A DNA stretch of 64,000 bases from Oligoflexia bacterium (GTDB lineage Bacteria > Bdellovibrionota > Bdellovibrionia > JABDDW01), in the NCBI GenBank assembly GCA_016715815.1, contig JADJXN010000007.1, positions 5,549-69,548 of the forward strand, read 5' to 3'. The notes below the pieces were generated by a model. The model did no database searches. It was not told the origin of the DNA and was given only the letters and a program-made list of their open reading frames with translations. Below are positions 20,736 through 54,217 of this stretch, piece after piece. Position numbers and translations under genes: made by a program. Position 1 is the stretch's first letter; each line of letters begins with the position of its first letter.

Positions 20736-21082
20736 ACAATTCAACCTAAGTTTTACTATAAGCCGGATTCTGTTATCGGCAATCATTCCTCTGGGAGGCA
20801 AATTACTTTGCCCCTCAAGCGATCTTACCCGGAAGTCTTAAGCGAGCCACTCACTTCCCTATTTGATCTTGCACCGTGCAGAGTTTGGCTGTTTTCACTC
20901 CTTAGCTCCCTAAAAAGCTCCCGTTTCCGCTTTTAAGATCACTGCCTCAGACATTCTCTCTGTTCCACTGTTCCTCATCTTACGATGGGGGGCCGTTAGC
21001 CCCTGCACTGCTCTGTGGAGTCCGGACTTTCCTCAAACGCTAGTTATTGCATCTGCAATTGCCCGTAAAACTTAAATTGTTC
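20736..21082 (-). ncRNA. rnpB: RNase P RNA (bacterial type A)
   Basis: The minus strand contains the universally conserved P4 strands GAGGAAAGUCCGGACUCCACAGAGCA and ACAGAAUCCGGCUUAU; the P1 helix pairs 5' AAUUUAAGUUUUAC with 3' GUAAAACUUAGGUUG; ~345 nt ORF-free region. Confidence 0.8.
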
Positions 21083-22917: not shown

Positions 22918-22994
22918 TGGTGGGCCCACCAGGATTTGAACCTGGGACTGCCCGGTTATGAGCCGGGAGCTCTAACCAGCTGAGCTATAGGCCC
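22918..22994 (-). tRNA. tRNA-Met (anticodon CAT; could be tRNA-Ile2/lysidine)
   Basis: Minus strand GGGCCUAUAGCUCAGCUGGUUAGAGCUCCCGGCUCAUAACCGGG...GGUUCAAAUCCUGGUGGGCCCACCA; cloverleaf with a CAU anticodon loop. Confidence 0.85.
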
Positions 22995-30042: not shown

Positions 30043-30768
30043 TTATGTTTTAAATAAAGCTTTGCTTGGCGAAGAAAAAAACTTGTCCCCATAAGAACAG
30101 CTAAATAAAACCAAAACCCCATCCTTGTAGCCGCCCTTTCTGAAATAAGATTTTAGAAAAATAGAAAGTCCTGAAAAAACATATAAAACATTATGTTTTA
30201 CACCTTTTTTATAAAGCGCCTCGGCATCTAAAGAAGAGTAGGTATTAATTTTATCCATCATGAGGGATAGTGTTTCAGGCGGAAAGTGCAAAATGGGAAA
30301 TTCAATTCTTCTAATTTCACCTTCAAAAGTAACATACTCATGCACCTCACCTATAAACTCGCAATCTTGGCGTTTAAAAAGTCTCCATTGATATGAAGGG
30401 GTTTTTTCTCCATAAAAATAAATTTTCCCCCTAAAGTGCTCAAGCCTTTTAACTTCTATAAGGCTTACTTCTTTTTTGGTAGCAACACCTTTGGGATGAG
30501 GGGCATCACATAAGTGAATCAAGTTTGAGAGCTGCCCGGGGCCTGATTGTTTGAATTTTTTCAAAAAACTTATTAGCTCTGGTGAGCATCCACTCCAGGC
30601 TCTCACAAAAACTTTATTAGAATATTTTTTGGCAATTTCTAAGGTTTTATCCTCACTTTGAGCATCAACAACAATAATTTCATCTGCCCATTTCAAGCTT
30701 TCAAGGCAGTTTTGAATGTTTTTTTCTTCGTTTTTTGTAATAACAAATGCTGAAATACTAGTTTGCAT
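30043..30768 (-). CDS. glycosyltransferase family 2 (LPS-core type)
   Basis: N-terminal AFVITKNEEKNIQNCLESL...DEIIVVDAQSEDKT. Confidence 0.7.
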   Translation of the reverse strand: MQTSISAFVITKNEEKNIQNCLESLKWADEIIVVDAQSEDKTLEIAKKYSNKVFVRAWSGCSPELISFLKKFKQSGPGQLSNLIHLCDAPHPKGVATKKEVSLIEVKRLEHFRGKIYFYGEKTPSYQWRLFKRQDCEFIGEVHEYVTFEGEIRRIEFPILHFPPETLSLMMDKINTYSSLDAEALYKKGVKHNVLYVFSGLSIFLKSYFRKGGYKDGVLVLFSCSYGDKFFSSPSKALFKT

Positions 30769-31190
30769 ATTCTTTTAAAATATTATTAAAAATCTCTTGT
30801 TGATCATATTCTTTTTTAACTCGCTCTTTTGCCTTCTCACCCATAGCGGGCCACTTATCCTTTTCTCTTAACGCACTTTTAATGGCCTCTTTTAGGCTTT
30901 CTAAGGATTTTGGCTCACAAAGCCAGCCCGTTTCCCCTGGGCGTACAAGCTCAGGTGTTCCACCGCTGTTTGTTCCAACCACTGGCAATGCTGCTAATTG
31001 CGCATCTAAGAGAGCTAAAGAAAAACACTCCTCATAACTTGGCAAGATATAAAGATCAAAGGCCTTAAATATTTAAAGACTCAAGCATGACACCCAAAAA
31101 AATAAGTTTGTGGCGGTTTATTTTTCTTAAATTTAAAAAATACTTCTCTGCTGCGGCGTTATTGGGCTTGAACCCCCAATAACTACTAAG
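30758..31190 (-). pseudogene. GT4-family glycosyltransferase remnant (N-terminally truncated, frameshifted)
   Basis: The C-terminal 95 aa carry the GT4 E-x7-E region (PSYEECFSLALLDAQ...VVGTNSGG); upstream pieces (FKAFDLYILPSYEE, KLIFLG) are out of frame with stops. Confidence 0.55.
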
Positions 31191-32045
31191 GTGTCAGTTT
31201 TATCATTATGAAAATATCAGCAAAGGCATGCTGAGCTCTTTTACCCTTTGATTTTTCAATTCTACTAACTGTTCCAATAATTGTTGCCGTTGTGAAAGGC
31301 CTAGTTTTTCGCTGTTTTTTTTTATCAAAAATTTGGGCTTCTTGTTTTTTATGTCGCGTCCGTAGTTAATAATTTTGAATTTTTTGAGGCTCAATTGGTA
31401 AGTAGTGCTCCTAAGGATTTCTTGGCTGGCTCGCTACTGCTACTGCTAACTCATCTACAACAGACTAAATGAGCCTGTGGTATGGGACGTTTTTGTAGTA
31501 GTTAATCCATAAATGCATTTGTAAAATTATTTTGGCCTCTTTTTGACACTGTTTTCGGAAGCATACGTAGGTAAAAAAAACAGGACACCTCTTGAGTTGA
31601 GTGAAGGTGAATCATCAAATAGACTAAAAACCCCGGATGCGCACGGTTAAACACCACCACCTCCAGAGATTTTGTACTATCAAAATCCCAATTAGGGATT
31701 TTATTTTGAACATAGCCTTTTAGGTAAGAGCCCGGAAAAACCACAAAAGACCACTTCATGGCCATGGCTTTTCTGGAAAGCTGCTAGCTCTAAAGCGTAT
31801 TGTCCAGCCAAGAAAGCTTTGCGATGGGAAAATGTCATTATCCTCATTCCCAAAAGGTAGCAGGTAGTTTTGGTAATTATAGACTTATGCTGACTTGAGA
31901 TGTAATTAATGCTTATTTAGTTACCGTGAAAGGCATTATTTAGTCAGCGGAAGCGGCACAAGACTCTACCCATTAACATCAGCTGTTAGTAAACAGCTTT
32001 ACCAGTTATAATAAACCCACCATTTACTATCCTCTCTCACTTTTA

Positions 32046-32780
32046 ATGCTGGCAGGTATAAAAGATATTTTAATTATCAGTACCCATGAGATTTACCGCA
32101 TTGAAGAGCTTTTAGGAAGTGGGGATAATTTTGGTATAAAACTTTCTTATAAAGTACAACCAAAACTTGAGGGCATTGCCCAAGCATTCATACTGGGTGA
32201 GGAGTTTATAAATAAAAGCCCAGTAAGTTTAGTCTTAGGGGATAACTTATTTTTGGCCAAGGATGCAAAACCTTTAGAAAAGGCAGCAAGATAAAAGATG
32301 GCGCATGCGTATTTGGTTACCAAGTTCAAGACCCTGAGCGCTACGGAGTAGTTGAGTTTGATACTAATAAAAGGCAATCAGTGTTGGAAAAGCCACAAAA
32401 AGCCAAAATCAAAGTGGGCTGTAACGGGCCTATATTTTATGATTCACATTAGTGTGAAATGACAAAAAATTAAAGCCCTCAAAACAGGGAAACTTGAAAC
32501 TACAGATTTAAATTTAGAATATCTAAAAGCAGAAGACTTAAGGTTGAGCTTTTAGGCCGCGGCGTTAGCTGGCTTGATACAGGCTCTGCTGAGAGTTTAT
32601 TAGAGAGTGCAAGCCGGTTTGTTCAAACTTTAGAAAAGCGCCAAGGCTTCAAATTGCTTGTTTAGAGGAGATTGCATTAAGTAAGGGTTTTTACTAACTC
32701 CTCAGCAACTTACTAAAATAGCTACAGAAAAATATCCTTCCAGTGGTATGGTTTGTATGTCCGCAATTTAGTTCCTGAGG
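32046..32780 (+). pseudogene. rmlA: glucose-1-phosphate thymidylyltransferase (rmlA) pseudogene
   Basis: RmlA-like segments (ILIISTHE...[19 protein letters not shown]..., [54 protein letters not shown]) scattered over three frames with in-frame stops. Confidence 0.75.
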
Positions 32781-32789
32781 TAAAAAAAC

Positions 32790-32882
32790 GGAGAGGTGGC
32801 TACGGAGTGGTTGAAGGCACATGATTGGAAATCATGCATACGGGCAACCGTATCGAGGGTTCGAACCCCTCTCTCTCCGCCA
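32790..32882 (+). tRNA. tRNA-Ser (anticodon GGA)
   Basis: GGAGAGGUGGCUACGGAGUGGUUGAAGGCACAUGAUUGGAAAUCAUG + long variable arm CAUACGGGCAACCGUAUC + GAGGGUUCGAACCCCUCUCUCUCCGCCA; resembles E. coli tRNA-Ser. Confidence 0.85.
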
Positions 32883-34149
32883 ACACCAGGGCTAAAAAAT
32901 TAAAAACATTAGATTGCAAAATTCGAAATGTGTTAAATAATATATGTTAAACGCGTCAAAAACTGAAGACTATCTTTACGGGGGTATGGCGATGAAACTT
33001 TTAATTTGTATAATGACATTTTCAATAAACGCGTTTGCGGCGACACCTTTTCTTGATCAATATTTTCTTGTGGGACCACATAATGACACCTATTTTTTTG
33101 CTCCCTTAGCCAAAACCCATTGCAAAGAATATCAAGTCTTTAAGATTTCTTGGCTAACATTGAGTTAAGCTTTAAAAATCAATGAGCGATGATGTTTTAC
33201 TTTTTGGAAGTTACCCAGTTTATACTGAATACGCCTCTTGCCCTGAGACTGATAATCAGGTTGTTATTAATTTTCAGGATATATATCTGCAAAAACAGAA
33301 AAGGAAATCTGTTGCTAGCAGAATATGTAAAAAGGGTGAATAAAAAAACGTTTTTTAATAGATATTTAGCCTTTTTAAAACCAGAACACACAGTCAATGT
33401 ATTCAATTTCGAAATAGATGGTGTTACAACCCTAAGATATCATAAAGATGCAATATCTTTTTCTGATGCCACACAGGAAGTTGATGAATTTAAAAAAAAT
33501 TAATATTAACCATGGGTAAAGCTGATGCTGTGAAAGATTTTCTTAGGAAAATCAATAAAGCCTAGTGATTATGAAAACACAATAAGATTAATAGAAATGC
33601 TAAGTATATTACATTTTTCTTCGTCATCAATGGTTCATGTTGAAATACTTTGCGTGAAGGAGATGGTTATTGGGAGCATTATCCTTGTAATCCAAACTCC
33701 TTTTTGCGAATTAGTTTCAATGCAGCAATAACTTGGTTCTAAATCTGGATTTTCTCGGCCAGAACCACTTTTGTAAAAAACTAACACCCAAATATGTCAC
33801 TGACTTTTTGGTCAGCTCTGAACAAAAATAAAACAGCCTAGCAAGTGGAACATGCTAGTTTAACCTTTCTTTTAATGCACCAGGCTAAACCTGCCAAATA
33901 AATCAAGACATGCATGCGTGATATCAATGCTATACTGCTCCCTTGTAAGTCATTGACACCACAAAACCTATAACTGGTAAAGATTATGAACCCTTGAAGC
34001 TGCCAAAATATTTGGTAGAAAGGATGTCTCAAAATGGAGACTCAAATGGTAAAAGAGCCTAAAATAGCGGTGTTGATTACTAAGTTATGTAGTTCACAGG
34101 AATTTAGAGGATTACTGGCGAGCTGAAGAGAAAGTTGAATTGATTGTGA

Positions 34150-35240
34150 TTGGTCTGACAAGGAAAAATTCCAGTGACAACCCTTTGCAAGATCAACAAC
34201 GTAACGCCAAGTCAGTATTACGAGTGGCGGGAGAAATTTTTAGCTACAGGTAAGCGGGGCCTCATGGCAAATGGAGGTAAGACCCAACGAGAAGCTGAGC
34301 TTGAGAAGAAAATAAGTATTTTTAGAGCGCTGTATTGGAGAATTAACTCTTGAAAAGAGTTGTTAAAAAAATCAGCGAAGATTCCTAAAGTTAGGAAAAT
34401 TGTTAATAAATATAAGAACGACTTTAAGGTGCGAACCCTGAGCAAGGTTCTTGGGGTGAGTCGCCAAAGGGTTTATTTTATTAAAAAATGCCCAGAGTTA
34501 AGAGCACCAGAAGGGAAAGAAAAATGAAAGAAGATGAGGCTATGATAATAAAAAATATTGAAAATTGTTTCGAGAACTACCTGTCTATGGCTATAGACGT
34601 GTAACAGCTGTTTTGCGCCACAGGTATGGATTAAGGTAAGCTGGAAAAGGTTTACAAGATAATGCGTGAGAAAACTTTGTATGCCACCAAGTCACAGTCA
34701 CTTAAAAAGATGTTTAGAGGAGTACCGTTTGCAACAAAACTCAAGTTCAAGATCAAATGAGTTATGGGGTATAGACATGACATACATTTGGTGTGGTTAA
34801 AGATGTAGTGCTACTTCCATGGAGTTATTGATCATCATGACAAGACGTTGCTTAGTTACTATTTTCAAAGATCTTGCTCTGCCTTGGGTGGTGTAATGGC
34901 CTAGGGAAATGCAGCATCCAGAGAAGTGAGTCCTTGGAGTTAGATCTGATAACGGTTGTCACTATGGAGCGAAGGTCTTTAAAGACGAGATTAGACGTCT
35001 TAGAATTAATCATACAAGAACTATGGTTAATACCCCCAAAGGCAATGCTGAATTGAGAGATTTTTAGATCACTCAAAGAGAATGGTGTGGCAACAGAAAT
35101 TTTTAATTTTGAACAAGCTAAAGAGGCTGTTGATAAATGGTATTAAAGTACAACCAAGAGCGCCCACACCAAACCCTTGATTACTTAACCCCAAAACAAT
35201 TTTACGAAAGGAGCACTATAGGAAATATTCAACAAAAAGT
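34150..35240 (+). mobile_element. degenerate IS3-family insertion sequence copy (transposase orfA/orfB remnants)
   Basis: OrfA-like (QYYEWREKFLATGKRG...REAELEKKISIF) and rve-like (WGIDMTYIW, ...QPRAPTPNP) translations broken by many stops and frameshifts. Confidence 0.5.
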
Positions 35241-35460
35241 GTCTTGATTTATAGGGAGCACTACACACTTTTCCTTGTCCAAAGAGCCTCACACTTAACG
35301 GAGGTTCTTATGAATCTAATCACTCGAATTGTTTTAGGGCTGGTGAAGCTGGCGTTAGCCATCGGCTTCGCCGGAGGGCTAATTGATCTCACGCATACCA
35401 TGAAGGACGAGGCGCTGAAGGCTCATAGGCAAGGGATCGTGATGACCTTCTCCCCTTAAA

Positions 35461-36643
35461 TTAGTCCAGTCTGAGTCGGATTAAACTGTGGTAAAAGCTA
35501 CAGAAGGAGGAGGTAGGTATGTCCAGAGGGAAGAGATATAGTCCAGAGGAAGTAATAATAAAACTACGCGAAGCTGAAGCTTTGCAGGTTCAAGGATTAA
35601 ACCAAGGTGAAATTTGTAGGCAACTTGGTGTTTCAGCAGACACTTATATCCGTTGGGAAAAGATATGGTGGGATGCGTGTTGATCAAGCAAAAAAGCTTA
35701 AAGATCTGGAAAGGAGAATCAGCAGCTTAAAAATTAGTAGCTGATTTAAGCCTTGATAATTCCATGCTCAAAAGTTAACAAGGGAAACTTTTAAGCCCGA
35801 CAAGGAAGCGTCAAAAGCTGTGGTGATGTTAATAGAAAAGTTTGAAACATCTGAACGTCGGGCATGTAAAGTTGTTAGTCTTTTCAGAGCGACAAAAGAT
35901 ACGAAGCAAAAGTAGATACAATAAATAAAGTGATCACGCCAAAAATTGAGTACGCAAGTCAATATGGGCGCTATGGCTACAGGAAGTAACAGCAATGGTG
36001 AGAGCTGATGGGTTTTAAAGTGAATCACAAAAGAGTTTACCGTATATGGCGTAGGAGGAGGATTAAAAGTACCAAAGAAGCAACCAAAAGAAGTAGACTT
36101 TGGCTCAACGATGGATCTTGTATCAGAAAAAGGCCGGAGTATAAAAATCATGTGGTCATATGATTTTGTGCATGATTACACACATGATGGAAGGCCAATA
36201 AAGATGTTAACCATCATTGATGAATTTAGTAGAAAACTTAGCAATCAAAGTGGGGAGAAAATTAAGATCTATAGATGTGTTAGAAGCACTGGCTGATTTA
36301 TTTTTAGAAAAAGGAATTCCAAAATACATCAGATCAGATAATGGGCCAGAATTTATTGCCAGAAAACTTATCCACTGGTTTGGCAAAATTAAAATAAGTC
36401 CATTATTTATCACACCAGGGAGTCCATGGGAGAATGGTTACATTGAATCATTTAATGGGAGACTCAGGGATGAGTTGTTAAATGGAGAAATATTTTTTAC
36501 ATTAAAAGAGGCTCAAGTTTTGATAGAGAGATGGCGAAGAAATTACAACACCATAAGGCCACATAGTAGCTTAGGTTACAAACCACCAGCTCCTGAGGCA
36601 ATTATGGTTGCAATTTAAACTATCCGACTGTACATGGACTAAA
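35461..36643 (+). mobile_element. degenerate IS3-family insertion sequence with imperfect terminal inverted repeats
   Basis: Left end TTAGTCCAGTCTGAGTCGGAT is mirrored at the right end as ATCCGACTGTACATGGACTAA; OrfA MSRGKRYSPEEVIIKLREAEALQVQGLNQGEICRQLGVSADTYIRWEK; orfB full of stops. Confidence 0.65.
36217..36618 (+). pseudogene. IS3-family transposase, integrase-core C-terminal fragment
   Basis: rve domain tail SDNGPEF...[23 protein letters not shown]...[11 protein letters not shown]. Confidence 0.7.
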
Positions 36644-36656
36644 TAGTGGGGCTGGG

Positions 36657-36860
36657 TCACTCTCCCCAAGGGTCGCTATTATATGTTGTTATTTGATCTA
36701 GGCCTACAATAGGAGTTGGCCAAGAGCTCTGGCTTAAAGCCGCCTCATAGCCGAGTTTATTAATTTTATTTTGAGCGGATACAATGGTATCTGCATCAAG
36801 AGCTGCAGCAAAAGAATTTAAAGAAAATAATGCGATTAAAAAAAGCAGTGTTAGTTTCAT
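36657..36860 (-). CDS. small secreted peptide (67 aa, Sec signal)
   Basis: MKLTLLFLIALFSLNSFAAALDA...; immediately downstream of the NTase/PqqD operon. Confidence 0.35.
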   Translation of the reverse strand: MKLTLLFLIALFSLNSFAAALDADTIVSAQNKINKLGYEAALSQSSWPTPIVGLDQITTYNSDPWGE

Positions 36861-36975
36861 GGGTCCCCCTCCCGTTAAACTATTTGCTAAAAATTCTAGT
36901 ATGGGGGGTTAAAGACACCTAGTTAAGAAAAGTGAAATCTTCTGTTAAGCGCATCGTTTTAATTTTTAAAAATGA

Positions 36976-38103
36976 TTAGGGTTTACCTTTTAATTTCCTT
37001 AGGCCATAAATTGCTCGCCAAATATAAAGAGCTGGTAAATAGATGTTGGATTTGATGTTATATTTTTTCTTCATGTATTCTTTGGGGGGGATAAGTCGTT
37101 CCTGTAAGTATTTGAGTTTATTTGGTAAGCTTAGACTTTCTAAATCGCAAACAAAATCGCTTAGAAGGCTGCGCTTGGGGCTTAAAAAAACTATAGAATC
37201 AGCCTCATCACTATTGGGCTTGGCACTTATAATTTCTTGTAAGAAAGTCTCGGGCCATATTGTATTAAACCATTCTTTCGTTTTTTCCATGCCTTTAGCA
37301 CATAGAAACCAAACTTTTTTTTCTTTTGCTAGGTTTTGAAAATCCGTCAGCCAGATTGAGTTTTTTTTGTCAGTTAAAAGATGTGTATCATAAAGCCACA
37401 GCGGGTTTTCCTCATCGTGGTGGTGCGCAACACCATGAATAAAAGCATACAAGAGAGCGTGATGGTCGTTCATCACCTTTATGACTCCATTATGTTCTGG
37501 CAAATCTTGAGCTGCACTATAAGCCTCATCAAAAGAAATAAGATTTGCAAAATAATTAATATTACTGAGCTTCCAGTGCAGATCAAAAACCAAATTATAA
37601 CCATGGTGTTCAAGTTTTGAAAAGGCGCACTGATGTCCTGCCTGTTGGCCATAGGTCATATTTTCTTGTCTATAACCTAGAGATTTGAAAACCTGGAAAG
37701 CTAATTGACGATTTTTTTCAGAAATAAAAAGATCAATATCTCCGTGAGCGCGCAGACCTGGTCTTGGGTAAATGGTATAGGAGAGCGCAGCCCCTTTTAA
37801 AACAAGAAAAGGAATATTATTTTTTTTAAACTCAAGGCCTAATTTAATTAGGGCGTGTTTTCTGATGTCTATTAAAAACGTTTCTCGTGCTACCTCAAGC
37901 TTAAGGGCTTGCTTAACAGACGACGGGCAGGTTTGTGTAAGGACATTTTGTTCTAGCCAGTAATTTAATAGTGGCAGGAGATGATTTTTTTTTAACTCGT
38001 CTAAAAGAAATTTTTGAAACCCGGCATCGCTTTCATCCCAAGTTACAGTAGTGCTGTTAGCAGCTTGCTGTATTACTTTCTGAAATTTTTTTTGGTAAAG
38101 CAT
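36976..38103 (-). CDS. Pol-beta-type nucleotidyltransferase family protein (lasso-cluster-associated type)
   Basis: hG[GS]...D.D signature in AHGDIDLFIS; 4-nt gap to the upstream PqqD gene. Confidence 0.6.
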   Translation of the reverse strand: MLYQKKFQKVIQQAANSTTVTWDESDAGFQKFLLDELKKNHLLPLLNYWLEQNVLTQTCPSSVKQALKLEVARETFLIDIRKHALIKLGLEFKKNNIPFLVLKGAALSYTIYPRPGLRAHGDIDLFISEKNRQLAFQVFKSLGYRQENMTYGQQAGHQCAFSKLEHHGYNLVFDLHWKLSNINYFANLISFDEAYSAAQDLPEHNGVIKVMNDHHALLYAFIHGVAHHHDEENPLWLYDTHLLTDKKNSIWLTDFQNLAKEKKVWFLCAKGMEKTKEWFNTIWPETFLQEIISAKPNSDEADSIVFLSPKRSLLSDFVCDLESLSLPNKLKYLQERLIPPKEYMKKKYNIKSNIYLPALYIWRAIYGLRKLKGKP

Positions 38104-38107
38104 AGAT

Positions 38108-38395
38108 TTACTGAAAGCTAATCAAATTATTTTTTTTTAAAACTTTTAGTAAGGATAAAACATCGGTCTCTGCTTTTTGTTTGCCAATCTGGTAATCTTG
38201 CACAAGTGTAGTAATAATTTTTTTTACAGGAGTTCCTTTTTTTATCAGTTCCCAAATTTGGGTCCCAACCTGGTTAAGACCGAAGTACGTTCCTGATTCT
38301 AAATGAAGTATGACTTCTTCTTTTTGAACGGGGCGCGAGACAATGTCTTTAGAAATTATTATTTTAGATTCAAGAAGGTTCTTTGTGCTTTGCAT
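38108..38395 (-). CDS. PqqD-family RiPP recognition element (lasso B1-like)
   Basis: 95 aa (ILHLESGTYFGLNQVGTQIWELIKKGTPVKKIITTLVQDY) with the typical PqqD winged-helix pattern. Confidence 0.75.
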   Translation of the reverse strand: MQSTKNLLESKIIISKDIVSRPVQKEEVILHLESGTYFGLNQVGTQIWELIKKGTPVKKIITTLVQDYQIGKQKAETDVLSLLKVLKKNNLISFQ

Positions 38396-39641
38396 AGACC
38401 ACCTGCGGGTTAGAGAATAATTTATTAAACAACAAATTTTTATTTTTTGTCAAGTAATGTTCAACAGTATATGCAGCATAAAGCATTAAATAGATATCCA
38501 GATAGGTTCTGTGTAATGTGTGGGCCCAAAAAACCCCTGTTATAATAATAAATGATGCAAAGTGAAAATAAATAAGAAGCTGTGTTTTTATTTTTTCTCT
38601 ATTTAAATACATTCCAATTAAACCCAAAAGCAAAAGTGGTGTGTAAGAAAAAAAATAAACAATTTGTACAACTGGAGTTTTTTGCGGGTTAAAAATCCAA
38701 CTAAAACCAGCCATATTTTTTTTTATAAAACCCACAAAAGTTTGCCATGGGTGAGTTTTAATGTATTTGATAGCCATTTGAGTGTACCACTGGTTCTGTA
38801 GACGCTCGTTATGTTCTATCAGATAAATCTCAACTATATCTAGATCGATAAAGGCTTTTGAACGGCTTGTATCCATGCTTTCTCTTGGGTAGTGAGAAAA
38901 TGTGTGAGGATTATTCCCTCCCCAGAGAGCCTTACCAAACTGGGAGGTTATTAGTGGGGCGCCAATAAGAAGATGGGTGCGTATAAGCCACGGTAAAATA
39001 GTGAAAAAACAAAAAATAATAATTAAAAGGGGTTTTCCAAATTTTATTTTAATATGAGCGGTGTTATTTATAAAAACCCATATTGCGGCAAGTGGTACAA
39101 ATGGGAATAGAGTGCTTCGGACAAGTAAGGTTAGGCCTAAACAGATCCCTGCTACAGCACTTAGATAAAGCTTTTTTGAATTGTTAGCCTTGATTAGAAA
39201 GACGGTGCTAAGTGCCGTCATAAATGTAAAAAGACTAGCTTCGTGTAATGAAGGATCATGAAGAACAAAGTAAGGGTAAAGAGCTGTTAATAGAGCTGCA
39301 CTTATTCCTATTTTGTAAGAGAAAAATTTTTTTCCGATGTAGAAGATGCAAAGTGTGGTGGCGGCGCCTAAGAGAGATTGGAGAACAACAATAACAATAA
39401 AACTCATGGAGCTTAATGCCGCAAAACTAAGAAGAAGTGGGTAGCCGGGTGGAATAAAGGCGTAGTAGGCTGGGTCGCCGAGGTAAAGCCCGTATCCTTG
39501 TGTAAGATTTTTTGCAATCTGAAAGTAGGACTCATATCCACGGTTCCAAAATAAATCCTCTCCGACAATAAAGGCGGAGCCTGCGCGCAGCATAAAGGCG
39601 AGTACAAAAATTAAATGTAACCGATATTTTTTTATATACAT
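38370..39641 (-). CDS. GT-C fold membrane glycosyltransferase (ArnT/PMT family)
   Basis: 423 aa polytopic protein with an ArnT/PMT-like N-terminal loop (...YAFIPPGYPLLLSFA...) and ~10 TM helices; 3' end overlaps the PqqD gene. Confidence 0.6.
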   Translation of the reverse strand: MYIKKYRLHLIFVLAFMLRAGSAFIVGEDLFWNRGYESYFQIAKNLTQGYGLYLGDPAYYAFIPPGYPLLLSFAALSSMSFIVIVVLQSLLGAATTLCIFYIGKKFFSYKIGISAALLTALYPYFVLHDPSLHEASLFTFMTALSTVFLIKANNSKKLYLSAVAGICLGLTLLVRSTLFPFVPLAAIWVFINNTAHIKIKFGKPLLIIIFCFFTILPWLIRTHLLIGAPLITSQFGKALWGGNNPHTFSHYPRESMDTSRSKAFIDLDIVEIYLIEHNERLQNQWYTQMAIKYIKTHPWQTFVGFIKKNMAGFSWIFNPQKTPVVQIVYFFSYTPLLLLGLIGMYLNREKIKTQLLIYFHFASFIIITGVFWAHTLHRTYLDIYLMLYAAYTVEHYLTKNKNLLFNKLFSNPQVVYAKHKEPS

Positions 39642-39703
39642 TAATTGTGGTTATCCTATGTTTAGTCTTGCAATGAGCGGGCAAAATAACAATAATTTTC
39701 TAT

Positions 39704-40855
39704 ATGCATTCTGAATCTGCTTTAAAGATCCCATTAGTTTCCCAATTGCTGAAAGACCCTTCTTTTAAAATAATAAAACGTGCGGTTGATTCAAAATGGA
39801 TTTATGAAAAGCTGGTTCCATTGGGCCATTGCGGCTTTAACCCTGCCACCAATGCGGCCTATGTAGGTTTTAATTCGTCAGTGTCGCAGTGGTTACAAAA
39901 TCCCAAGCAAAGTATTCGCAGTTTTAACTTTAACGATACATTTTTACATGAGCTTTTTTTTATAATCCATGATTACCTTCATGCCTGGAGCTACAATGCC
40001 ATTAACGAGCTTTACCCAGGTTTAAAATTTGGTTACGGAAAAATTACTGAAAAAAACTTTGAAGACTATGTTTTTTGCCATATTTTAACTGAGGCGGTAG
40101 CCACGGTGGGCCTAGATTATTGGTATTTATCCACCATTGAATTAAACCAGGTAATACCAGTAGGCGCTAATATCAAAACACTGACAGCGGCTTATCACGT
40201 AAAAAATAATTCGGAATATAGACGCTTTGACCCTAAGTTTAATGCACAAAAAAGGGGTTTTTTAAAAACACTTAACGATGCTTATTGCGATGGTATTTTT
40301 TATGCTTTACCAATGAAAGCCATCCAACTCAGCCCTCAGATATATAGATGGTATTGGCATGAGCTGACCTATGGGAGGCTTCAGAGAAAATACACTCGTC
40401 AATGGTTAAGCTATTTGTCTGCGGGCGAGGTTGTGTGTGAGCAGGCTAAGCTAGATATTAAAATCGATAATTCAAAAAAATGGATGCAAGAACTTGTTGA
40501 AGACTTATCCCTATTGCTTTGGCAAAAGGTTAAGGAGAATAAAAATATTTGGTTTAAGCCGCAATACGATGTTAAGCACGACGCTTGGGGCGGGAGTGGA
40601 AAATTGCAAATGGACAGTAGGTTTACATCGTTGATCCATCTAAAGACGCCAAAAACATTTAATTATCTTGACTACTATGTATCTCAATATGCCATTAGAC
40701 ATACCTTTTCTGAGAATAGTAAGGCCATTGCAAGCCAGCTTCCAGAAATTGCCAAAAGTAAAAATTTGCAAAAGCTAAAGAAAATATTTAAAAATCAAAA
40801 AAAGGTAGAGTCCGCGTTTGACGTCTATCCACAATCGCTTTTTATGCTCCCCTAA
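39704..40855 (+). CDS. hypothetical protein with HExxxxxH motif
   Basis: 383 aa; FLHELFFIIHDYLHAW; no known domain recognised. Confidence 0.35.
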   Translation: MHSESALKIPLVSQLLKDPSFKIIKRAVDSKWIYEKLVPLGHCGFNPATNAAYVGFNSSVSQWLQNPKQSIRSFNFNDTFLHELFFIIHDYLHAWSYNAINELYPGLKFGYGKITEKNFEDYVFCHILTEAVATVGLDYWYLSTIELNQVIPVGANIKTLTAAYHVKNNSEYRRFDPKFNAQKRGFLKTLNDAYCDGIFYALPMKAIQLSPQIYRWYWHELTYGRLQRKYTRQWLSYLSAGEVVCEQAKLDIKIDNSKKWMQELVEDLSLLLWQKVKENKNIWFKPQYDVKHDAWGGSGKLQMDSRFTSLIHLKTPKTFNYLDYYVSQYAIRHTFSENSKAIASQLPEIAKSKNLQKLKKIFKNQKKVESAFDVYPQSLFMLP

Positions 40856-49652: not shown

Positions 49653-50951
49653 ATGGATTTGTCTCTTGTAATACCCTGTTATAACGAGGCACTGTATTTA
49701 AAAAATAATTTTAATGCTCTGGTTAGTGTATTAAAGCAGACTAGCTATGAGTTTGAAATTATTTTTGTTGATGATTGCAGTACAGATAACACAAAAGAGA
49801 TCATTGGCGAAATTAGTAACTCAAGCCATAATTGTAAAGCCATATTTAATTTAAAAAACTTAGGCAGAGGCACTTCTTTTAAGCAAGGCTTTTCAGTGGC
49901 TGAGGGGCGAATTATTGGCTTTATTGATATCGATTTAGAAATAGCCCCCCATTATATTCTTGATCTCATTTCCAAAATTGATAAAGAAGGTTTTGATTTA
50001 TCACTTGGCCGGCGCTTTTTGTTTTATGGCTTTCAAAAACCAATACGTAATATTTTTTCCCTTCTTTGTAGATATTTCTGCTCTCTAGTACTTGGAACGC
50101 AAAATTACGACACCCAAGTTGGATGTAAGTTTTTTAATGGCCATACGGCGCGACCGAGTATTTTAGAAAGTAAAAGTAGTAGTTGGTTTTGGGATACAGA
50201 AGTTATATTTATGGCGCAATTAAATAAACTAAAGATTGTTGACATTCCAGTTCGCTATAGACCGCTTAAAAATAAAAAATCAACAGTGAGAATTATTCCT
50301 GACACGATTAAATTTATACAAGGGGTGCGTGAACTAAGGCGCAAAATGGGATTGAGTTTATCTAATCGCTCCCCCATATATTGGAGCAATAAAGGGTATA
50401 ACTTTATTATGCAACTATTGACTGGGAAGAGTTTTCAACAATCTTTTTCAAAAGTGGCAGAGCTTATTCCAGAAAGTGCTTCGGTTATTGATGTTTGTTG
50501 TGGAACTGGAGAGTTTTATTATAAACATTTAAAACAAAAAAATTGTGATTATAGAGGGCTTGACTATAATTATCGTTTTGTAAAAGGCATTAATAAAAGA
50601 GGGGTAAAATCAAACTTGTCTGATGTTCGTTATGAGAAAATCCCGGCTTGTGACTATGTTGTTATGGTTTCAAGTTTTTATCATTTTAAAAAACAAAAAA
50701 ATGAAATATTAAAAAACATGCGAGCCTCGGCTCAAAAGGCGGTAATTATTAGTGAGCCTGTGCACAATTTTTCGCGGCACCGTATTGGTTTTGTGTCAAA
50801 GGTGGCAGTTATGCTAAGTAAGCCTGGGGAAGGGGAGTATATGGAACGCTTTAATTTAAAAGAGTTTCAAGAATTTGCACAAGCGGAAGGAGCAACAGAG
50901 TTTTATTTTAACTCTAAAGATAAAAATGCCATTGCGGTTTTTAAAACTTGA
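49653..50951 (+). CDS. bifunctional GT2 glycosyltransferase / class I SAM methyltransferase
   Basis: N-terminus LVIPCYNEALYL...FVDDCSTDNT (GT2); C-terminus VIDVCCGTGEF (SAM motif I). Confidence 0.7.
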   Translation: MDLSLVIPCYNEALYLKNNFNALVSVLKQTSYEFEIIFVDDCSTDNTKEIIGEISNSSHNCKAIFNLKNLGRGTSFKQGFSVAEGRIIGFIDIDLEIAPHYILDLISKIDKEGFDLSLGRRFLFYGFQKPIRNIFSLLCRYFCSLVLGTQNYDTQVGCKFFNGHTARPSILESKSSSWFWDTEVIFMAQLNKLKIVDIPVRYRPLKNKKSTVRIIPDTIKFIQGVRELRRKMGLSLSNRSPIYWSNKGYNFIMQLLTGKSFQQSFSKVAELIPESASVIDVCCGTGEFYYKHLKQKNCDYRGLDYNYRFVKGINKRGVKSNLSDVRYEKIPACDYVVMVSSFYHFKKQKNEILKNMRASAQKAVIISEPVHNFSRHRIGFVSKVAVMLSKPGEGEYMERFNLKEFQEFAQAEGATEFYFNSKDKNAIAVFKT

Positions 50952-50976: not shown

Positions 50977-51759
50977 ATGTCAAAAATCAGTGTTGTTATT
51001 CCAGTTTATAATCAGTCGCACTTTACAAAGAGATGCTTGCCATCTTTAATTGATGGAGCGGTTGAGCCGCAAGAGCTAATTATTATCGATAACAACTCAA
51101 CTGACGACACACCAAAATATTTAAAAGAGTTTCAAGAATATGCAGAAAATAAAAATTGGAAGATGCAAATTATTACAAACCCCCAAAATGTGGGTGTGGG
51201 GGCGGCGTTTAATCAAGGTATTAAGGCGGCAAGTGCGGAGTATGTAGCCCTTGGCAATAACGACACTTGGATTATGCCCGGCTGGGACAACGCTTTAATT
51301 AACGCTATTGAAACTTTGAAAGCCGACATGGTAGGCCCTCATTTTGACGAGAGCTTATTTAATGAAAAGGAAATTTTAGAAAAGGCAAAAAAATTTGTTA
51401 AAAAAAATCACGGACGTGCAACGCGCGAGTGGGCTGTTATTTTAATGATGTTTAAAAAAGAAGTTTTTGAAAAAATTGGTCTTTTTGATGAGCGCTTTTT
51501 TATCACCTACGAAGATCGTGACCTAAGAGAGAGAATGGACCGTGCCGGTATGAAGTATTATAAAACTGGTAATTGTTATATTTGGCATCATTCAAAAGGT
51601 ACCCGCGATGCCGGTGGTGTTGTTTCTAATTATGAGGCTGATAGTTTAAAAAAATTTATTGAAAAGTGGGGCTTTGACCCAAGGCCACAGGAAAACACAC
51701 TTTTATACCGCTACAAACGCAAATGGGTACGCTTTAAAAATCGGCTAGGTTATCTTTAA
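50977..51759 (+). CDS. glycosyltransferase family 2
   Basis: ISVVIPVYNQSHFTKRCL...IIIDNNSTDDT... Confidence 0.8.
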   Translation: MSKISVVIPVYNQSHFTKRCLPSLIDGAVEPQELIIIDNNSTDDTPKYLKEFQEYAENKNWKMQIITNPQNVGVGAAFNQGIKAASAEYVALGNNDTWIMPGWDNALINAIETLKADMVGPHFDESLFNEKEILEKAKKFVKKNHGRATREWAVILMMFKKEVFEKIGLFDERFFITYEDRDLRERMDRAGMKYYKTGNCYIWHHSKGTRDAGGVVSNYEADSLKKFIEKWGFDPRPQENTLLYRYKRKWVRFKNRLGYL

Positions 51760-52837
51760 TAATTTCAGCAGCTAACTTTATTCCTTCTGGGTTCCAGTGG
51801 GTGTCATCCAGCCAATAAATATACTTATTATTTTTCAATAATTTTTCTGCAACAACTTGAAACTGAGGAAGTAAATTAATGCTATGAACTTTATTTTTGC
51901 TAAGCTCATTTGAAAGCTGATTTAAATAGGGCTCACTATTTGTTGTGCTTTGGTTTTTGTTCAAATTTGCATAAACAGTGTATTTTTCAGGAACAAGTAC
52001 AACGTGTAGGGTGATTTGTTTTTTTGCTAATAATTTTTTAAGTTCTGTAAAATACTGTGTATCACTAGTTATCTGATTAAAGCTTGGGTGATTGTACTTC
52101 TCTATTTGTGAGGGTGGGTAAATTATTTCCGCATTATTTATTAATTTTTCAATTTTTACATTTGATTCAAAGCGATTTGGAAAAATATTTTTAGTTACAA
52201 AACTCTTTTCAAAGCGAGATGAAATAATCTCAAGGGGGTTAAAATTTTTATAGTAATCAAACAAAATTTTTAATTTGCTAAAAAAACTATTATCTAAAGT
52301 CTTGTTAAAATCCTTTATCTCCTCAGGACTTCTGTGGTGTCTTTCAAGGTGAAAAAACAAAAGAGCCTTGGGAGTTGTTGTTAAATTTTTTAAAAGCCAA
52401 GCTAAATATTCAAGCTCAAGTTTTCCGGCCCCATTATAAACATGAGCATTTAATGCTTTTGATAGCTGCTCTGCTGGAATCTGCTCTTGTGAAACGCCCT
52501 CGCCAAAAGTAAAGGAATCGCCATAAATAAGAATATCATTTTTTTGATTAAATACATCTAAAGTATTTCTGTAGCCCCATGGATCTGTAATAAATATTTC
52601 TGAGCGGTATTGACAAAAATCCATGCGGTTTGAAAGTTTTGCCAAGTCTCCACAAATAGCATTTTTTTGCATATTAAAATTGGCTTCAAAAGGTGCCGCG
52701 GGAAGGCGTCTTAAACTGGCGCACTCAAGGGCTCTTGTGCAAAACACTGTGGGAGATAATGAGCGCGGCAAAGTATAAGCTGCTAAAAAAAGAGCGTATA
52801 CTATTAAAACTATTTTTATAAAGCCTAAATTCCTCAT
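51734..52837 (-). CDS. AlgJ/AlgX-like DHHW-motif SGNH protein (MBOAT partner)
   Basis: N-terminal anchor; LDDTHWNPEG (DxHW signature) near the C-terminus; immediately downstream of an MBOAT gene. Confidence 0.6.
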   Translation of the reverse strand: MRNLGFIKIVLIVYALFLAAYTLPRSLSPTVFCTRALECASLRRLPAAPFEANFNMQKNAICGDLAKLSNRMDFCQYRSEIFITDPWGYRNTLDVFNQKNDILIYGDSFTFGEGVSQEQIPAEQLSKALNAHVYNGAGKLELEYLAWLLKNLTTTPKALLFFHLERHHRSPEEIKDFNKTLDNSFFSKLKILFDYYKNFNPLEIISSRFEKSFVTKNIFPNRFESNVKIEKLINNAEIIYPPSQIEKYNHPSFNQITSDTQYFTELKKLLAKKQITLHVVLVPEKYTVYANLNKNQSTTNSEPYLNQLSNELSKNKVHSINLLPQFQVVAEKLLKNNKYIYWLDDTHWNPEGIKLAAEIIKDNLADF

Positions 52838-52846
52838 ATCCCTTTC

Positions 52847-54217
52847 TTAAAACTGAAAATATAAAAATGGTGAATTATTATTTGCCAAAATTCTTACTAG
52901 TGAGATTAAAAATAAAGCTGCCATGGCCCAAGATTTAATTTTGCCATATTTATGTTTAAGCTCAAAGGTATTGGGCATTGTATGGGCTATAATAATGCTT
53001 AATGCTACAACACAGGCCAGAGTTTGCCACTGAGCTGGCATAGCACCTGGCATTTGGCCAAACATTTTATTTAAAATTAAAAATGAAGTAGCCATATCAG
53101 GGGATCTAAAAAAGACCCAGGCAATAACAACCAATAAAAAGGTGATCATCTTTGCAACAAAGGGTGAAAGCTTGGCATTACCAAACTCTTTCCATAAGTG
53201 GTTTATAATCAAATAAATTCCATGCAAAGCGCCCCAAATAATAAATGTCCAGTTGGCTCCATGCCAAAGACCGCCTAAAAGCATAGTGATAAATAAATTT
53301 ATTTTAGTTCTCAAAGGTGAGATTCTGTTTCCCCCAAGGGGAATATATAAATAATCTCTTAGCCAAGTAGAAAGGCTAATGTGCCAGCGGCGCCAAAAAT
53401 CAGAAATATCTATGGCCTTATAGGGTGAGTTGAAATTTTGTGGAATTCTAATTCCAAACATGTAACCAAGGCCTACGGCCATGTCACTGTAGCCAGAAAA
53501 GTCAAAATACAGCTGATACGTATAGCCCAGCATTATAAGCCAAGTGCCAGAGCTGCTAAGAGTATTTATATTTAAAAATGCTGGGTCAATAATAGCGGCA
53601 ATGCTATCTGCGATGAGTACTTTTTTAAAAAGCCCAATAAGAAAAAAGCTAAAACCCTCATTAATTTTGGAAAATTTGTCAGACTTATCAATTTTCTCTA
53701 AATCTTCCTCAATTTGCCTAAAGCGCACAATGGGCCCTGCGACAAGTTGAGAAAATAAAGAAACATAACAAGAAAATTCAAAAAAGTTTTTTGTAGGCTT
53801 AATAGTTCCGCGGTAGGCATCAATAATGTAGCTCATGGTGTGAAAGGTGTAAAAAGATATACCAACTGGTAAAATTATTTTTAAAGCTGGCAAATCAACA
53901 GCCCAGTGCATATTATCTGCAAAGAAATTATAATATTTAAAAAAACCTAAAAGCGCTAAATCAACACTAATGGCTAAAACCATAGCCCTTTTTTTAAGTA
54001 TTTTATTTTTAGCTTTTAAAATATAAAGGCCTGCAAAATAACTTACCAAAGTTGAAAAAAGCATTAATAGGCAAAACCGCGCATCCCACCAACCATAAAA
54101 AACATAGCCAGTAAGAGTGAGCCAAAAGTAGCGCTCAGTTTTGGTTTTAAGGTTCCAAAAAACAAAATAAGTTATGGGTAAAAAGGCAAATAAAAAGACA
54201 ACACTGTTAAAGAGCAT
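52847..54217 (-). CDS. MBOAT-family membrane-bound O-acyltransferase (AlgI-like)
   Basis: FSGYSDMAVGLGYMFGIRIPQNFNSPY...FWRRWHISLSTWLRDY; paralogous to 40856..42337. Confidence 0.85.
   Translation of the reverse strand: MLFNSVVFLFAFLPITYFVFWNLKTKTERYFWLTLTGYVFYGWWDARFCLLMLFSTLVSYFAGLYILKAKNKILKKRAMVLAISVDLALLGFFKYYNFFADNMHWAVDLPALKIILPVGISFYTFHTMSYIIDAYRGTIKPTKNFFEFSCYVSLFSQLVAGPIVRFRQIEEDLEKIDKSDKFSKINEGFSFFLIGLFKKVLIADSIAAIIDPAFLNINTLSSSGTWLIMLGYTYQLYFDFSGYSDMAVGLGYMFGIRIPQNFNSPYKAIDISDFWRRWHISLSTWLRDYLYIPLGGNRISPLRTKINLFITMLLGGLWHGANWTFIIWGALHGIYLIINHLWKEFGNAKLSPFVAKMITFLLVVIAWVFFRSPDMATSFLILNKMFGQMPGAMPAQWQTLACVVALSIIIAHTMPNTFELKHKYGKIKSWAMAALFLISLVRILANNNSPFLYFQF

Follow-up and report, generated by a model that had tools for sequence, protein, structure and literature searches.

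The window, that is, the whole 64-kb stretch of DNA analysed here, holds what by its gene content is a lasso peptide cluster of the kinase/nucleotidyltransferase (K/N) class, of the pseudomycoidin/Bsf type and with a predicted threaded product, and a gene for a GT-C fold membrane glycosyltransferase forms one tight operon with two components of this cluster, the PqqD-type RRE (B1) and the NTP_transf_5 protein (N). In this study I show that the same GT-C family recurs in the neighbourhood of N, K and PqqD genes in other genomes; that a GT-C accompanies the K/N lasso pathway in several unrelated bacteria is new. As best explanation I propose, at a little less than an even chance, that this is a split-B K/N lasso cluster with N-dependent phosphoglycosylation, followed after export by an extension that a lipid-sugar-dependent GT-C would carry out. 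The operon and the region downstream of it comprise:

38370..39641, minus strand: GT-C fold membrane glycosyltransferase (PMT_2/GT39-like), 423 aa, first gene of the operon
38108..38395, minus strand: B1, PqqD-type RRE, 95 aa, middle gene of the operon
36976..38103, minus strand: N, NTP_transf_5 nucleotidyltransferase-fold protein (PsmN/BsfN type), 375 aa, last gene of the operon
30758..36618, downstream of N: decayed flank with a GT1/GT4 C-terminal fragment, an RmlA-like fragment, tRNA-Ser(GGA) and two IS3-type transposase remnants

The first-pass annotation had described three packed minus-strand genes, two of them overlapping by 26 nt and the third 4 nt away, and the open reading frames agree with this to the nucleotide: GT-C ends with TGA at 38370-38372 and overlaps the PqqD frame by 26 nt, and the TAA of PqqD is followed after 4 nt by the ATG of the nucleotidyltransferase. 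The names given to the three genes were also sound, all Pfam assignments being significant (GT-C, PF13231 PMT_2, E 9.5e-11, above its cut-off; PqqD, PF05402, E 2.6e-17; N, PF14907, E 2.5e-32). The PqqD start, ATG 38395, is the sole canonical start upstream of the PqqD domain, and GCAGGTGGTCT ahead of it looks like a Shine-Dalgarno site. In a consensus scan of 36500-40000, promoter- and terminator-like sites were not commoner than in shuffled sequence, and none was found at the gene junctions of the trio. The operon is bordered by IS3 and pseudogene scars, and as these abut it, the exact GT-C/PqqD junction may be a recent accident.

The precursor, kinase, cyclase, B2 and ABC-2 exporter genes are located 6-11 kb from the trio, with B1 and N 6-9 kb from K, C and B2:

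44662..45612, minus strand: K, HprK-related peptide kinase (HprK_rel_A E 3.4e-10, Hpr_kinase_C E 2e-4, both below cut-off)
45619..45795, minus strand: A, lasso precursor, 58 aa, with the translation MKKIKKHKKKHQIKKKYESPKLTNYGNIKSVVK (putative leader) and ARKGGGGFDGGGGKPNSRASGWPPT (putative core)
45792..47726, minus strand: C, lasso macrolactam cyclase (Asn_synthase E 1.7e-33; lass_lactam_cya E 1.6e-105, below the curated cut-off)
47727..48146, plus strand: B2, transglutaminase-like leader peptidase (PF13471 E 1.8e-19; lasso_biosyn_B2 78 bits, cut-off 33)
48159-48944, plus strand: ABC-2 permease, starting 12 nt past B2
48933-49616, minus strand: DrrA-like ABC ATPase, likely forming the exporter together with the permease

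The set by which a split-B lasso cluster is recognised, C, B2 and a PqqD RRE, is thus present with one copy of each. A PqqD profile run against all open reading frames of the 64-kb window has one match only, 38108..38395, and K, N, B2, C and GT-C are likewise single-copy within it. The K motif H...GxxGxGKS-x15-DD is that of BsfK (compared with PMC10368454), and the intact catalytic motifs of both K and N support the best explanation. Phosphorylated lasso peptides carry YxxPxL at -17..-12 and Ile/Val at -2 (PMC10368454); when YESPKL of the precursor, an instance of this leader motif used by B1 proteins, is set at -17..-12 by that rule, the core would start at A34, with Val (instead of Thr) at -2 and an Ala1-Asp9 ring, which makes the site before A34 the putative cleavage site. 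Asp9 of the core ARKGGGGFD fits the Asp/Glu at core position 7-9, four residues of the core peptide are basic, and the precursor, which ends in Thr and not in Ser, contains Ser17 and Ser20. A homologous precursor is present at locus L059; the strict YxxPxL-plus-ring pattern is matched by a precursor in the window only, the other loci yielding by-eye candidates with uncertain cleavage sites. B1 and N possibly came to lie behind GT-C, apart from the A-K-C-B2 core, through rearrangement.

PqqD matches the NCBIfam model lasso_PqqD_Bac with E 4e-19 and 68.5 bits, the curated cut-off of the model being 80, and its closest solved relative is the lasso B1 protein TbiB1 (PDB 5v1u/5v1v; 5v1u, E 6e-14 over 80 residues), which makes it a putative leader binder, although TbiB1 stems from a plain lasso cluster. 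As the only RRE in 64 kb, and a TbiB1-like one, it almost certainly serves the distant B2. This had been the fallback of the first-pass annotation, a split B1 serving the distant B2/C, and the YxxPxL leader motif of the precursor likewise favours it. For genome mining it means that an essential RRE can sit several kb beyond the recognisable core cluster. PqqD probably serves the HprK-like kinase as well, since leader-guided kinase action has a precedent in BsfB1, which speeds up BsfK (PMC10368454), and a similar PqqD-guided action of N is conceivable.

In N, D122/D124 (GDIDLF) are invariant in family alignments; they form the same kind of DxD pair as D134/D136, mutated in PsmN (PMC6993621), and may be equivalent to it in position. 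The AF2 model of N (pLDDT 84), which like the search for related loci was built from a 10-sequence alignment of these nucleotidyltransferases, matches MenT1 and ANT(2'')-Ia; the N profile gave no sequence match in the PDB. The nearest relatives of the window N are found in GT4-Bac_transf-FAD-N-Wzy_C cassettes adjoining lasso genes. PsmK and PsmN add phosphate plus one or two hexoses in vivo (PMC6993621), and it is debated when the N of phosphorylated lasso peptides acts, and whether it is a glycosyltransferase of a novel type or a nucleotidyltransferase that supplies a glycosyltransferase of the host (PMC6993621, PMC9266682, PMC10368454).

GT-C belongs to a family of about 28 close homologs with 31-42% identity. 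Its AlphaFold model (pLDDT 89.9) retrieves with Foldseek a top 30 made up entirely of GT-C-fold membrane enzymes, among them STT3, AglB, PglB, Pmt4, ALG3/9 and ArnT, and its sequence match to solved members is marginal (STT3A, E 1e-3). The topology is N-in, with MYIKKYR followed by TM1 and an acidic loop. E28/D29 stand just before FW, and four of five homolog N-termini, judged by eye, have a D before FW; the alignment shows no invariant acidic column in the first extracytoplasmic loop, and the best-conserved acidic pair is H128/D129. In all known GT-C structures the catalytic loops point to the periplasm or lumen. The RRE binds its leader in the cytoplasm, where leader cleavage and ATP-dependent cyclisation also take place.

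This geometry bears on the main proposal of the first-pass annotation, according to which the RRE, translationally coupled to GT-C, delivers the precursor for leader-guided O-glycosylation from a lipid-linked donor. The 26-nt overlap, the common operon and the fact that PMT and STT3 relatives glycosylate peptides would agree with such a scheme. However, the N-in topology puts catalysis in the periplasm while leader binding and removal take place in the cytoplasm, so that leader-guided action of GT-C is unlikely; and in the other lasso-type loci in which PqqD and GT-C are both resolved (L018, L028, L029 and L033), PqqD has its customary place between K and B2, not beside GT-C, with L033 coupling GT-C to K instead. 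I therefore consider RRE-guided glycosylation by GT-C very improbable.

Among 51 species-level genomes with this GT-C family, N is located within 10 kb of GT-C in 14, PqqD lies near it in 13 and K in 10, and an association of GT-C with a PqqD/kinase/NTase RiPP module is observed in 14-16; about two thirds of the GT-C loci are devoid of N, K and PqqD over that distance. When the neighbouring open reading frames were clustered without bias, N came out as the joint commonest real neighbour family of GT-C. Two more cases have GT-C in one operon with K or N: in L033 an overlapping run of GT-C, K, B1, B2 and C is followed by D and N on the same strand, and L004 has the order N-GT-C-GT41. In other loci GT-C is convergent with N-D-C-B2-B1-K, or the order is K-PqqD-rSAM-GT-C-x-N, and the GT-C/N pairing is found in two RiPP classes, lasso and rSAM/SPASM. 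More distant GT-C-like genes lie within the lasso clusters of L059 and L115. The GT-C-N loci span Acidobacteriota, Alphaproteobacteria and Oligoflexia, and the N-linked members are scattered over the GT-C tree; as many of these loci come from related Acidobacteriaceae, the number of independent events is smaller than 14. These observations indicate that the association of GT-C with K/N RiPP modules is not accidental. The adjacency of PqqD and GT-C, for which the first-pass annotation had suggested a comparison with other genomes, stood only in its looser form: the directly overlapping junction is seen in the window alone among the compared genomes, with scars abutting it, whereas the wider association, operon-level in L033 and L004, recurs.

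The genes between K and GT-C form a mosaic, in which one family has no relation to lasso clusters:

39704..40855, plus strand: conserved hypothetical protein, 383 aa, divergent from GT-C, no Pfam/NCBIfam hit
40856..42337, minus strand: MBOAT (DltB-like) membrane O-acyltransferase (PF03062 E 2e-23; DltB model E 5.6e-42, below cut-off)
42310..43608, minus strand: 432-aa protein overlapping the MBOAT start by 28 nt, no family hit
43673..44677, plus strand: 334-aa protein with an HExxH...E motif, no Pfam hit in any member

The 383-aa protein has more than 221 homologs of 35-47% identity, the two homolog contexts that were checked are without lasso genes, and it is probably outside the lasso pathway. 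The 432-aa protein is the presumed partner of the MBOAT. The family of the 334-aa protein (487 representatives, E<=1e-3) has H133, E134, H137 and E167 invariant in the alignment, which makes it a putative metallopeptidase. The 383-aa and 334-aa proteins were considered as paralogs and rejected (BLASTP E 0.65, hhalign probability 0.7%), as only their H[ED]xxH stretches align. The unassigned proteins had no useful match in PHROGs. No GT-C or N comparison locus has a counterpart of the MBOAT or of the 432-, 383- or 334-aa protein, which puts all four outside the conserved association.

In the proposed pathway, PqqD would first capture the 58-aa precursor in the cytoplasm by its YxxPxL leader and present it to the B2 peptidase and, as with BsfB1, to the HprK-like kinase. 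K would then phosphorylate a core Ser/Thr and the cyclase close the Ala1-Asp9 ring, and next the PsmN-like N would put a sugar on the phosphate or activate the phosphate for that step. Once the ABC-2 exporter had carried the peptide across the inner membrane, GT-C, with its periplasm-facing site and a polyprenyl-phosphate sugar, could build on or lengthen the glycan that the exported peptide carries. The order of the steps, the phosphorylation site, the donor of GT-C and above all its acceptor are what I infer. The proposal would place GT-C in an operon with B1 and N because all three belong to the same tailoring branch, not because of RRE guidance. I know of no experiment or structure that ties a GT-C to any RiPP. 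Against a role for it also count the psm and bsf clusters, which function, or at least occur, with no GT-C (PMC6993621, PMC10368454), the two thirds or so of GT-C loci that lack N, K and PqqD nearby, and the mosaic between K and GT-C.

Alternatively, GT-C, with the MBOAT pair, may be an envelope-glycan enzyme that acts on LPS, EPS or another surface polymer and leaves the peptide untouched, sharing an envelope or accessory island with K/N RiPP modules or providing self-immunity against the producer's own cationic peptide. I regard this as possible, at clearly less than an even chance. The closest homologs of the window GT-C (Pyrinomonadaceae, Anaerolineae; 37-42%) belong to ordinary polysaccharide loci that have no RiPP genes and contain GT4, GT2, Wzy, an Asn-synthase paralog and a carbamoyltransferase. 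Polysaccharide genes also adjoin the window cluster itself: one side has GT2s, another MBOAT/AlgX pair besides the first and a sugar C-methyltransferase, the opposite side the decayed GT4 and RmlA fragments. Both observations count against a role of GT-C on the peptide. ArnT and Dlt protect against cationic peptides, ArnT-like and DltB-like functions being classical defences of this kind, and the four basic residues of the core would fit. However, the genomes of the window, L033 and L004, which are unrelated, each have GT-C in an operon with cytoplasmic RiPP genes, the same GT-C/N pairing occurs in both the lasso and the rSAM/SPASM class, and lasso immunity normally comes from the exporter. 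The window GT2s were also compared with the GT2 beside GT-C in L001, and are not its orthologs.

It is also imaginable, though improbable, that N activates the phosphopeptide (an NDP-peptide would be one such form) and joins it by a phosphodiester bond to a sugar in a glycan that is lipid-linked or at the surface, with GT-C in the window or Wzy_C in relatives ligating or displaying the conjugate, so that the product would be a surface glycoconjugate and not a free antibiotic. The hexose of pseudomycoidin is on the phosphate, and nucleotidylation followed by a host transferase was left possible by the authors (PMC6993621); N lies between Bac_transf/GT4 and Wzy_C in many loci, and its fold is like that of enzymes nucleotidylating small substrates. 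Such a coupling is inference only, however, and in E. coli the psm cluster gives a free hexosylated peptide with no machinery of this kind (PMC6993621), while a profile search of the window open reading frames found neither Bac_transf nor Wzy_C. More generally, K/N RiPPs of both the lasso and the rSAM kind could be substrates of lipid-linked periplasmic glycosylation, in which GT-C or, in relatives, a Bac_transf/GT4/Wzy_C cassette extends the phosphosugar installed by N or joins the phosphopeptide to a glycan that is lipid-linked or at the surface; I put this forward tentatively, as rather unlikely. If true, K/N RiPPs would be the first RiPP class to be modified by GT-C or O-antigen-ligase-type enzymes, and the function of PsmN-type proteins would be explained; the recurrence of N, K and PqqD with GT-C or Bac_transf/GT4/Wzy_C cassettes points to concrete candidate partner enzymes for N. 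Periplasmic, lipid-donor-dependent glycosylation of RiPPs is thereby raised as a possibility, of which the literature searched holds no RiPP report: no paper was found that joins a lasso or K/N RiPP to GT-C, GT39, Wzy_C or undecaprenyl-linked glycosylation, in a search that left most subscription papers outside.

Among known systems, the psm cluster of Bacillus pseudomycoides (A, K, C, B1, B2, N, D; PMC6993621) shares with the window the split B1/B2, the HprK-like kinase and an NTP_transf_5 N with a DxD motif, and by analogy the expected window product is a phosphorylated and hexosylated lasso peptide. However, psm is compact, without the separation of B1 and N from K, C and B2 and without a GT-C, MBOAT or other membrane transferase, and its target is a C-terminal Ser, whereas the window precursor ends in Thr. 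The Bsf cluster of Bradymonas sediminis (A, B1, B2, C, D, K, N; PMC10368454) comes from a Gram-negative predator-related lineage, has the leader YxxPxL at -17..-12 and Ile/Val at -2, and its B1 aids both kinase and B2; unlike the window it is a contiguous 7.2-kb cluster with unrelated flanking genes and no GT-C, and its peptide has a Gly1-Asp8 ring and Ser3 phosphorylation. Lasso peptide glycosylation after cyclisation is known from davasin, where the soluble glycosyltransferase IgtG glycosylates the purified mature lasso peptide in vitro (PMC11912497), but IgtG is not described as a membrane enzyme and is unrelated to GT-C. PglL/WaaL-type Wzy_C ligases and O-oligosaccharyltransferases come into view through the N relatives that adjoin Wzy_C, Bac_transf and GT4, parts of en-bloc periplasmic glycan transfer; the window is without Wzy_C or Bac_transf, and GT-C would be their analogue, not a homolog. 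The PMT_2 hit, the GT-C fold and the N-in topology, and perhaps the acidic first outer loop, are in common with PMT/GT39, ArnT, STT3/PglB/AglB and the Pgf system of S. mutans, GT-C systems that use polyprenyl-phosphate sugars and none of which is linked to a RiPP, and with its 423 aa the window GT-C lacks the big soluble domains found in STT3 and PMT. ArnT attaches its sugar to a phosphate group, the same chemistry as in pseudomycoidin. A GT2 domain of the window, at 49653-50951, resembles the polyprenyl-P-sugar synthases PgfS and ArnC weakly, with scores below cut-off.

The three minus-strand open reading frames proposed in the first-pass annotation, encoding GT-C, PqqD and NTase, are present exactly as described, and they form one end of a lasso-peptide cluster. 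The kinase, precursor and cyclase genes lie upstream on the same strand, and B2 is divergent from the cyclase gene together with an ABC-2 permease, which starts 12 nt after B2, and a DrrA-like ATPase.

Genes of the lasso-peptide cluster (window coordinates)
36976-38103, minus: N, nucleotidyltransferase-fold protein NTP_transf_5 (Pfam 2.5e-32, exceeding the curated cut-off)
38108-38395, minus: B1, PqqD-type RRE (Pfam PqqD 2.6e-17, exceeding the curated cut-off)
38370-39641, minus: GT-C, PMT_2 membrane glycosyltransferase (Pfam 9.5e-11, exceeding the curated cut-off)
44662-45612, minus: K, HprK-related kinase
45619-45795, minus: precursor, 58 aa
45792-47726, minus: C, cyclase
47727-48146, plus: B2 peptidase

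The GT-C stop codon (38370-38372) sits 26 nt within the PqqD frame, for which the ATG at 38395 is the sole canonical start upstream of the domain; the preceding GCAGGTGGTCT looks like a ribosome-binding site. Only 4 nt separate the PqqD stop from the NTase ATG. In a consensus scan, promoter-like and terminator-like sites were not commoner than in shuffled sequence, and none was located at a gene junction. On the strand of the NTase, 116 nt beyond its end, follows a 67-aa open reading frame with a signal-peptide-like N-terminus and no family match (36657-36860, minus).

With profiles derived from the full set of comparison loci, exactly one copy each of PqqD, N, K, B2, C and GT-C turns up across the 64-kb window. 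The top NCBIfam match of PqqD is a lasso-type chaperone model, scoring under that model's cut-off, and among solved structures PqqD comes closest to TbiB1, a lasso RRE (E 6e-14). As PqqD is single-copy and TbiB1 its closest solved relative, it must be the B1 of the distant B2, which bears out the alternative of a split B1 serving B2 and C; a K/N lasso cluster with PqqD as B1 for the distant core is very likely. By analogy with BsfB1 of Bradymonas sediminis, it probably serves the kinase as well (PMC10368454). The kinase retains the H...GxxGxGKS-x15-DD motif (compared with PMC10368454), and N retains the invariant DxD pair, the same kind of pair hit by the PsmN mutations (PMC6993621).

The precursor consists of the predicted leader MKKIKKHKKKHQIKKKYESPKLTNYGNIKSVVK and the predicted core ARKGGGGFDGGGGKPNSRASGWPPT. 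Setting YESPKL at -17 to -12 by the rule for Bsf-type precursors would start the core at Ala34, with Val(-2) and an Ala1-Asp9 ring; Ile or Val at -2 is reported for phosphorylated lasso peptides of Bradymonadales, Acidobacteriaceae and Sphingomonadales (PMC10368454). A candidate precursor in a comparison locus (L059, about 7606-7881, plus; ...YRPPRLVKYGSLSQLALAATKGGTKGDGAANSRA) resembles it: both have a Y..P.L..YG leader, NSRA and a ring region of the form A.KGG...DG. A conserved Ser in NSRA may therefore be a modification site.

Close homologs of the GT-C number about 28 (31-42% identity). I scanned 51 GT-C loci at one genome per species, with neighbour calls resting on non-curated, self-built profiles that were iterated from the window proteins as seeds; precomputed Pfam matches were used for L001, L003, L004 and the contexts of N homologs. 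Within 10 kb of the GT-C, N occurs in 14 of the 51 loci, K in 10 and PqqD in 13, a looser association than the overlapping GT-C/PqqD junction, which was seen in the window alone; for N, about one locus is expected by chance if a 3-Mb genome holds three N genes, an assumed and not a measured number. Unbiased all-against-all clustering of neighbouring frames ranks the N family (13 loci) as joint top real neighbour with a family of about 610 aa, probably the carbamoyltransferase of L001. The GT-C is convergent with N-D-C-B2-B1-K in L018, L025, L028 and L029 and with N-rSAM-PqqD-K in L015, L017 and L020. In L033 its stop and the K start share 4 nt, the genes from K through B1 and B2 to C overlap one after the other, and D and N are on the same strand; in L004, NTP_transf_5-GT-C-GT41, with GT-C and GT41 overlapping, adjoins C, PqqD, B2, an HprK-like gene and a sulfotransferase. 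Taxonomically, these loci belong to the Acidobacteriota, Alphaproteobacteria and Oligoflexia, and N-linked GT-Cs are dispersed over the GT-C tree instead of forming one clade. The signal is strong but correlational, and many loci are from related Acidobacteriaceae. Six acidobacterial HprK-like (ScmC)/PqqD/radical-SAM/SPASM clusters (L003 6764-14476, L015, L016, L017, L020, L053) all have the same GT-C family nearby, and all except L053 NTP_transf_5 (in L003 ScmC-PqqD-rSAM/SPASM-x-GT-C-x-NTP_transf_5), so the K/PqqD/N/GT-C set also accompanies a non-lasso RiPP class.

The closest homologs of N (26-34% identity) lie in operons of the types GT4(s)-N-Bac_transf-ABC-FAD-Wzy_C or Wzy_C-N, directly adjoining PqqD, cyclase, precursor-sized frames, B2 and HprK-like genes. 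Scanning metagenomes added another 80 loci; the 25 loci of at least 8 kb contain GT4 (11), Bac_transf (9), an FAD enzyme (9), Wzy_C (8), PqqD (8), cyclase (6) and GT-C (2), with GT4-Bac_transf-FAD-N-Wzy_C as recurrent order. A GT4(s)/Bac_transf/FAD oxidoreductase/NTP_transf_5 operon, usually followed by Wzy_C of the O-antigen-ligase family, is found in L057, L058, L073, L099, L100, L106, L112, L115, L124 and L135, in most of them immediately adjoining lasso-peptide genes. A distant GT-C-like gene separates N from a divergent PqqD in L115, and another separates K from B2 in L059 (20-25% identity to the window GT-C). Genes for the assembly and transfer of polyprenyl-linked glycans are thus found again and again among N-type RiPP modules. 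The databases hold no close relative of the window cluster (best GT-C 42%, best N 34%).

Between K and GT-C lie a DltB-like MBOAT gene overlapping that of a 432-aa unknown (40856-43608, minus) and two plus-strand unknowns, all four proteins lacking counterparts in the comparison loci, so that this stretch is a mosaic. The 383-aa protein (39704-40855) belongs to a conserved family without a model (>221 homologs, 35-47% identity; H89, D90, H93 and E130 invariant), unrelated to lasso or RiPP genes in the two contexts checked. The 334-aa protein (43673-44677), whose gene runs at its 3' end 16 nt into the kinase gene, has 487 family representatives at E<=1e-3, no Pfam or NCBIfam model, and an invariant HExxH with downstream Glu; it may be a zinc metallopeptidase that is not yet classified. 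The stretch of about 6 kb that adjoins the NTase downstream (30758-36618) has no intact genes.

Remnants downstream of the NTase (window coordinates)
30758-31045: GT1/GT4 C-terminal fragment
32046-32294: RmlA-like NTP_transferase fragment
32790-32882: tRNA-Ser(GGA)
34174-34527 and 35519-36618: two IS3-type transposase remnants

This region may be the leftover of a glycan cassette like that adjoining N in relatives. Given the decayed genes and IS3 remnants beside N and the mosaic interval, the exact GT-C/B1 junction may be a product of rearrangement.

The predicted GT-C structure (AlphaFold, pLDDT 89.9) matches GT-C enzymes only, best the STT3/AglB/PglB oligosaccharyltransferases and Pmt4, then ALG3/9, ArnT and AftA. 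Three basic residues precede TM1, and the first loop, of 42 residues, is acidic. This is the N-in, loop-out topology known for all solved GT-C enzymes, so that the chemistry of this one is expected in the periplasm. The cytoplasm, in turn, is where the RRE recognises the leader, where the leader is cleaved off and where ATP-dependent cyclisation takes place; leader-guided glycosylation by GT-C, as first proposed from the RRE's coupling to it, is therefore very unlikely.

K/N lasso clusters are already known. The C-terminal Ser of pseudomycoidin is phosphorylated by PsmK, and one or two hexoses on the phosphate require PsmN in vivo, which its authors left undecided between a novel glycosyltransferase and a maker of a host-glycosyltransferase substrate (PMC6993621). 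The N model (pLDDT 84) resembles the substrate-nucleotidylating enzymes MenT1 and ANT(2'')-Ia, in agreement with the earlier Phyre result, a likeness that does not settle the chemistry. In the open-access literature I found no link of K/N lasso clusters to GT-C, Wzy_C or undecaprenyl-dependent glycosylation; the only lasso glycosyltransferase described there, IgtG, is unrelated to GT-C and acts on purified mature peptide (PMC11912497).

The most economical model, held tentatively and at slightly below even confidence, is a chain in which B1 would serve B2 and K, K and N would begin a phosphosugar while the peptide is still cytoplasmic, the ABC-2 system would export the peptide, and GT-C would then use a lipid-linked donor to add or extend a sugar. 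Glycosylation of a phosphate has a chemical precedent in enzymes of the ArnT type. Alternatively, GT-C may work on envelope glycans or in self-protection, merely co-located or co-regulated with the RiPP genes, which is quite conceivable, if on the doubtful side: about two thirds of the 51 loci are without RiPP genes (L001 is a plain polysaccharide cluster) and the nearest relatives of the window GT-C are in polysaccharide loci, so the family is not RiPP-specific. Coupling of the phosphopeptide by N to a lipid-linked or surface glycan seems improbable; a profile search of the 64-kb window found neither Wzy_C nor Bac_transf, and GT-C is its sole such glycan transferase.

Past the exporter lies a polysaccharide locus with two GT2s, an AlgX-like SGNH protein paired with a second DltB-like MBOAT (51734-54217, minus), a sugar C-methyltransferase and a PilZ protein. 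One of the two GT2s is fused to a methyltransferase (49653-50951, plus); its GT2 part weakly resembles, below cut-off, PgfS, ArnC and PpgS, which make polyprenyl-phosphate sugars, so that it may supply the donor for GT-C. Elsewhere in the window, without apparent link, are RNase P RNA (20743-21074, minus), a tRNA (22921-22994, minus), a 1461-aa TPR-repeat protein (56105-60490, plus) and an HNH endonuclease gene (62100-62945, minus).
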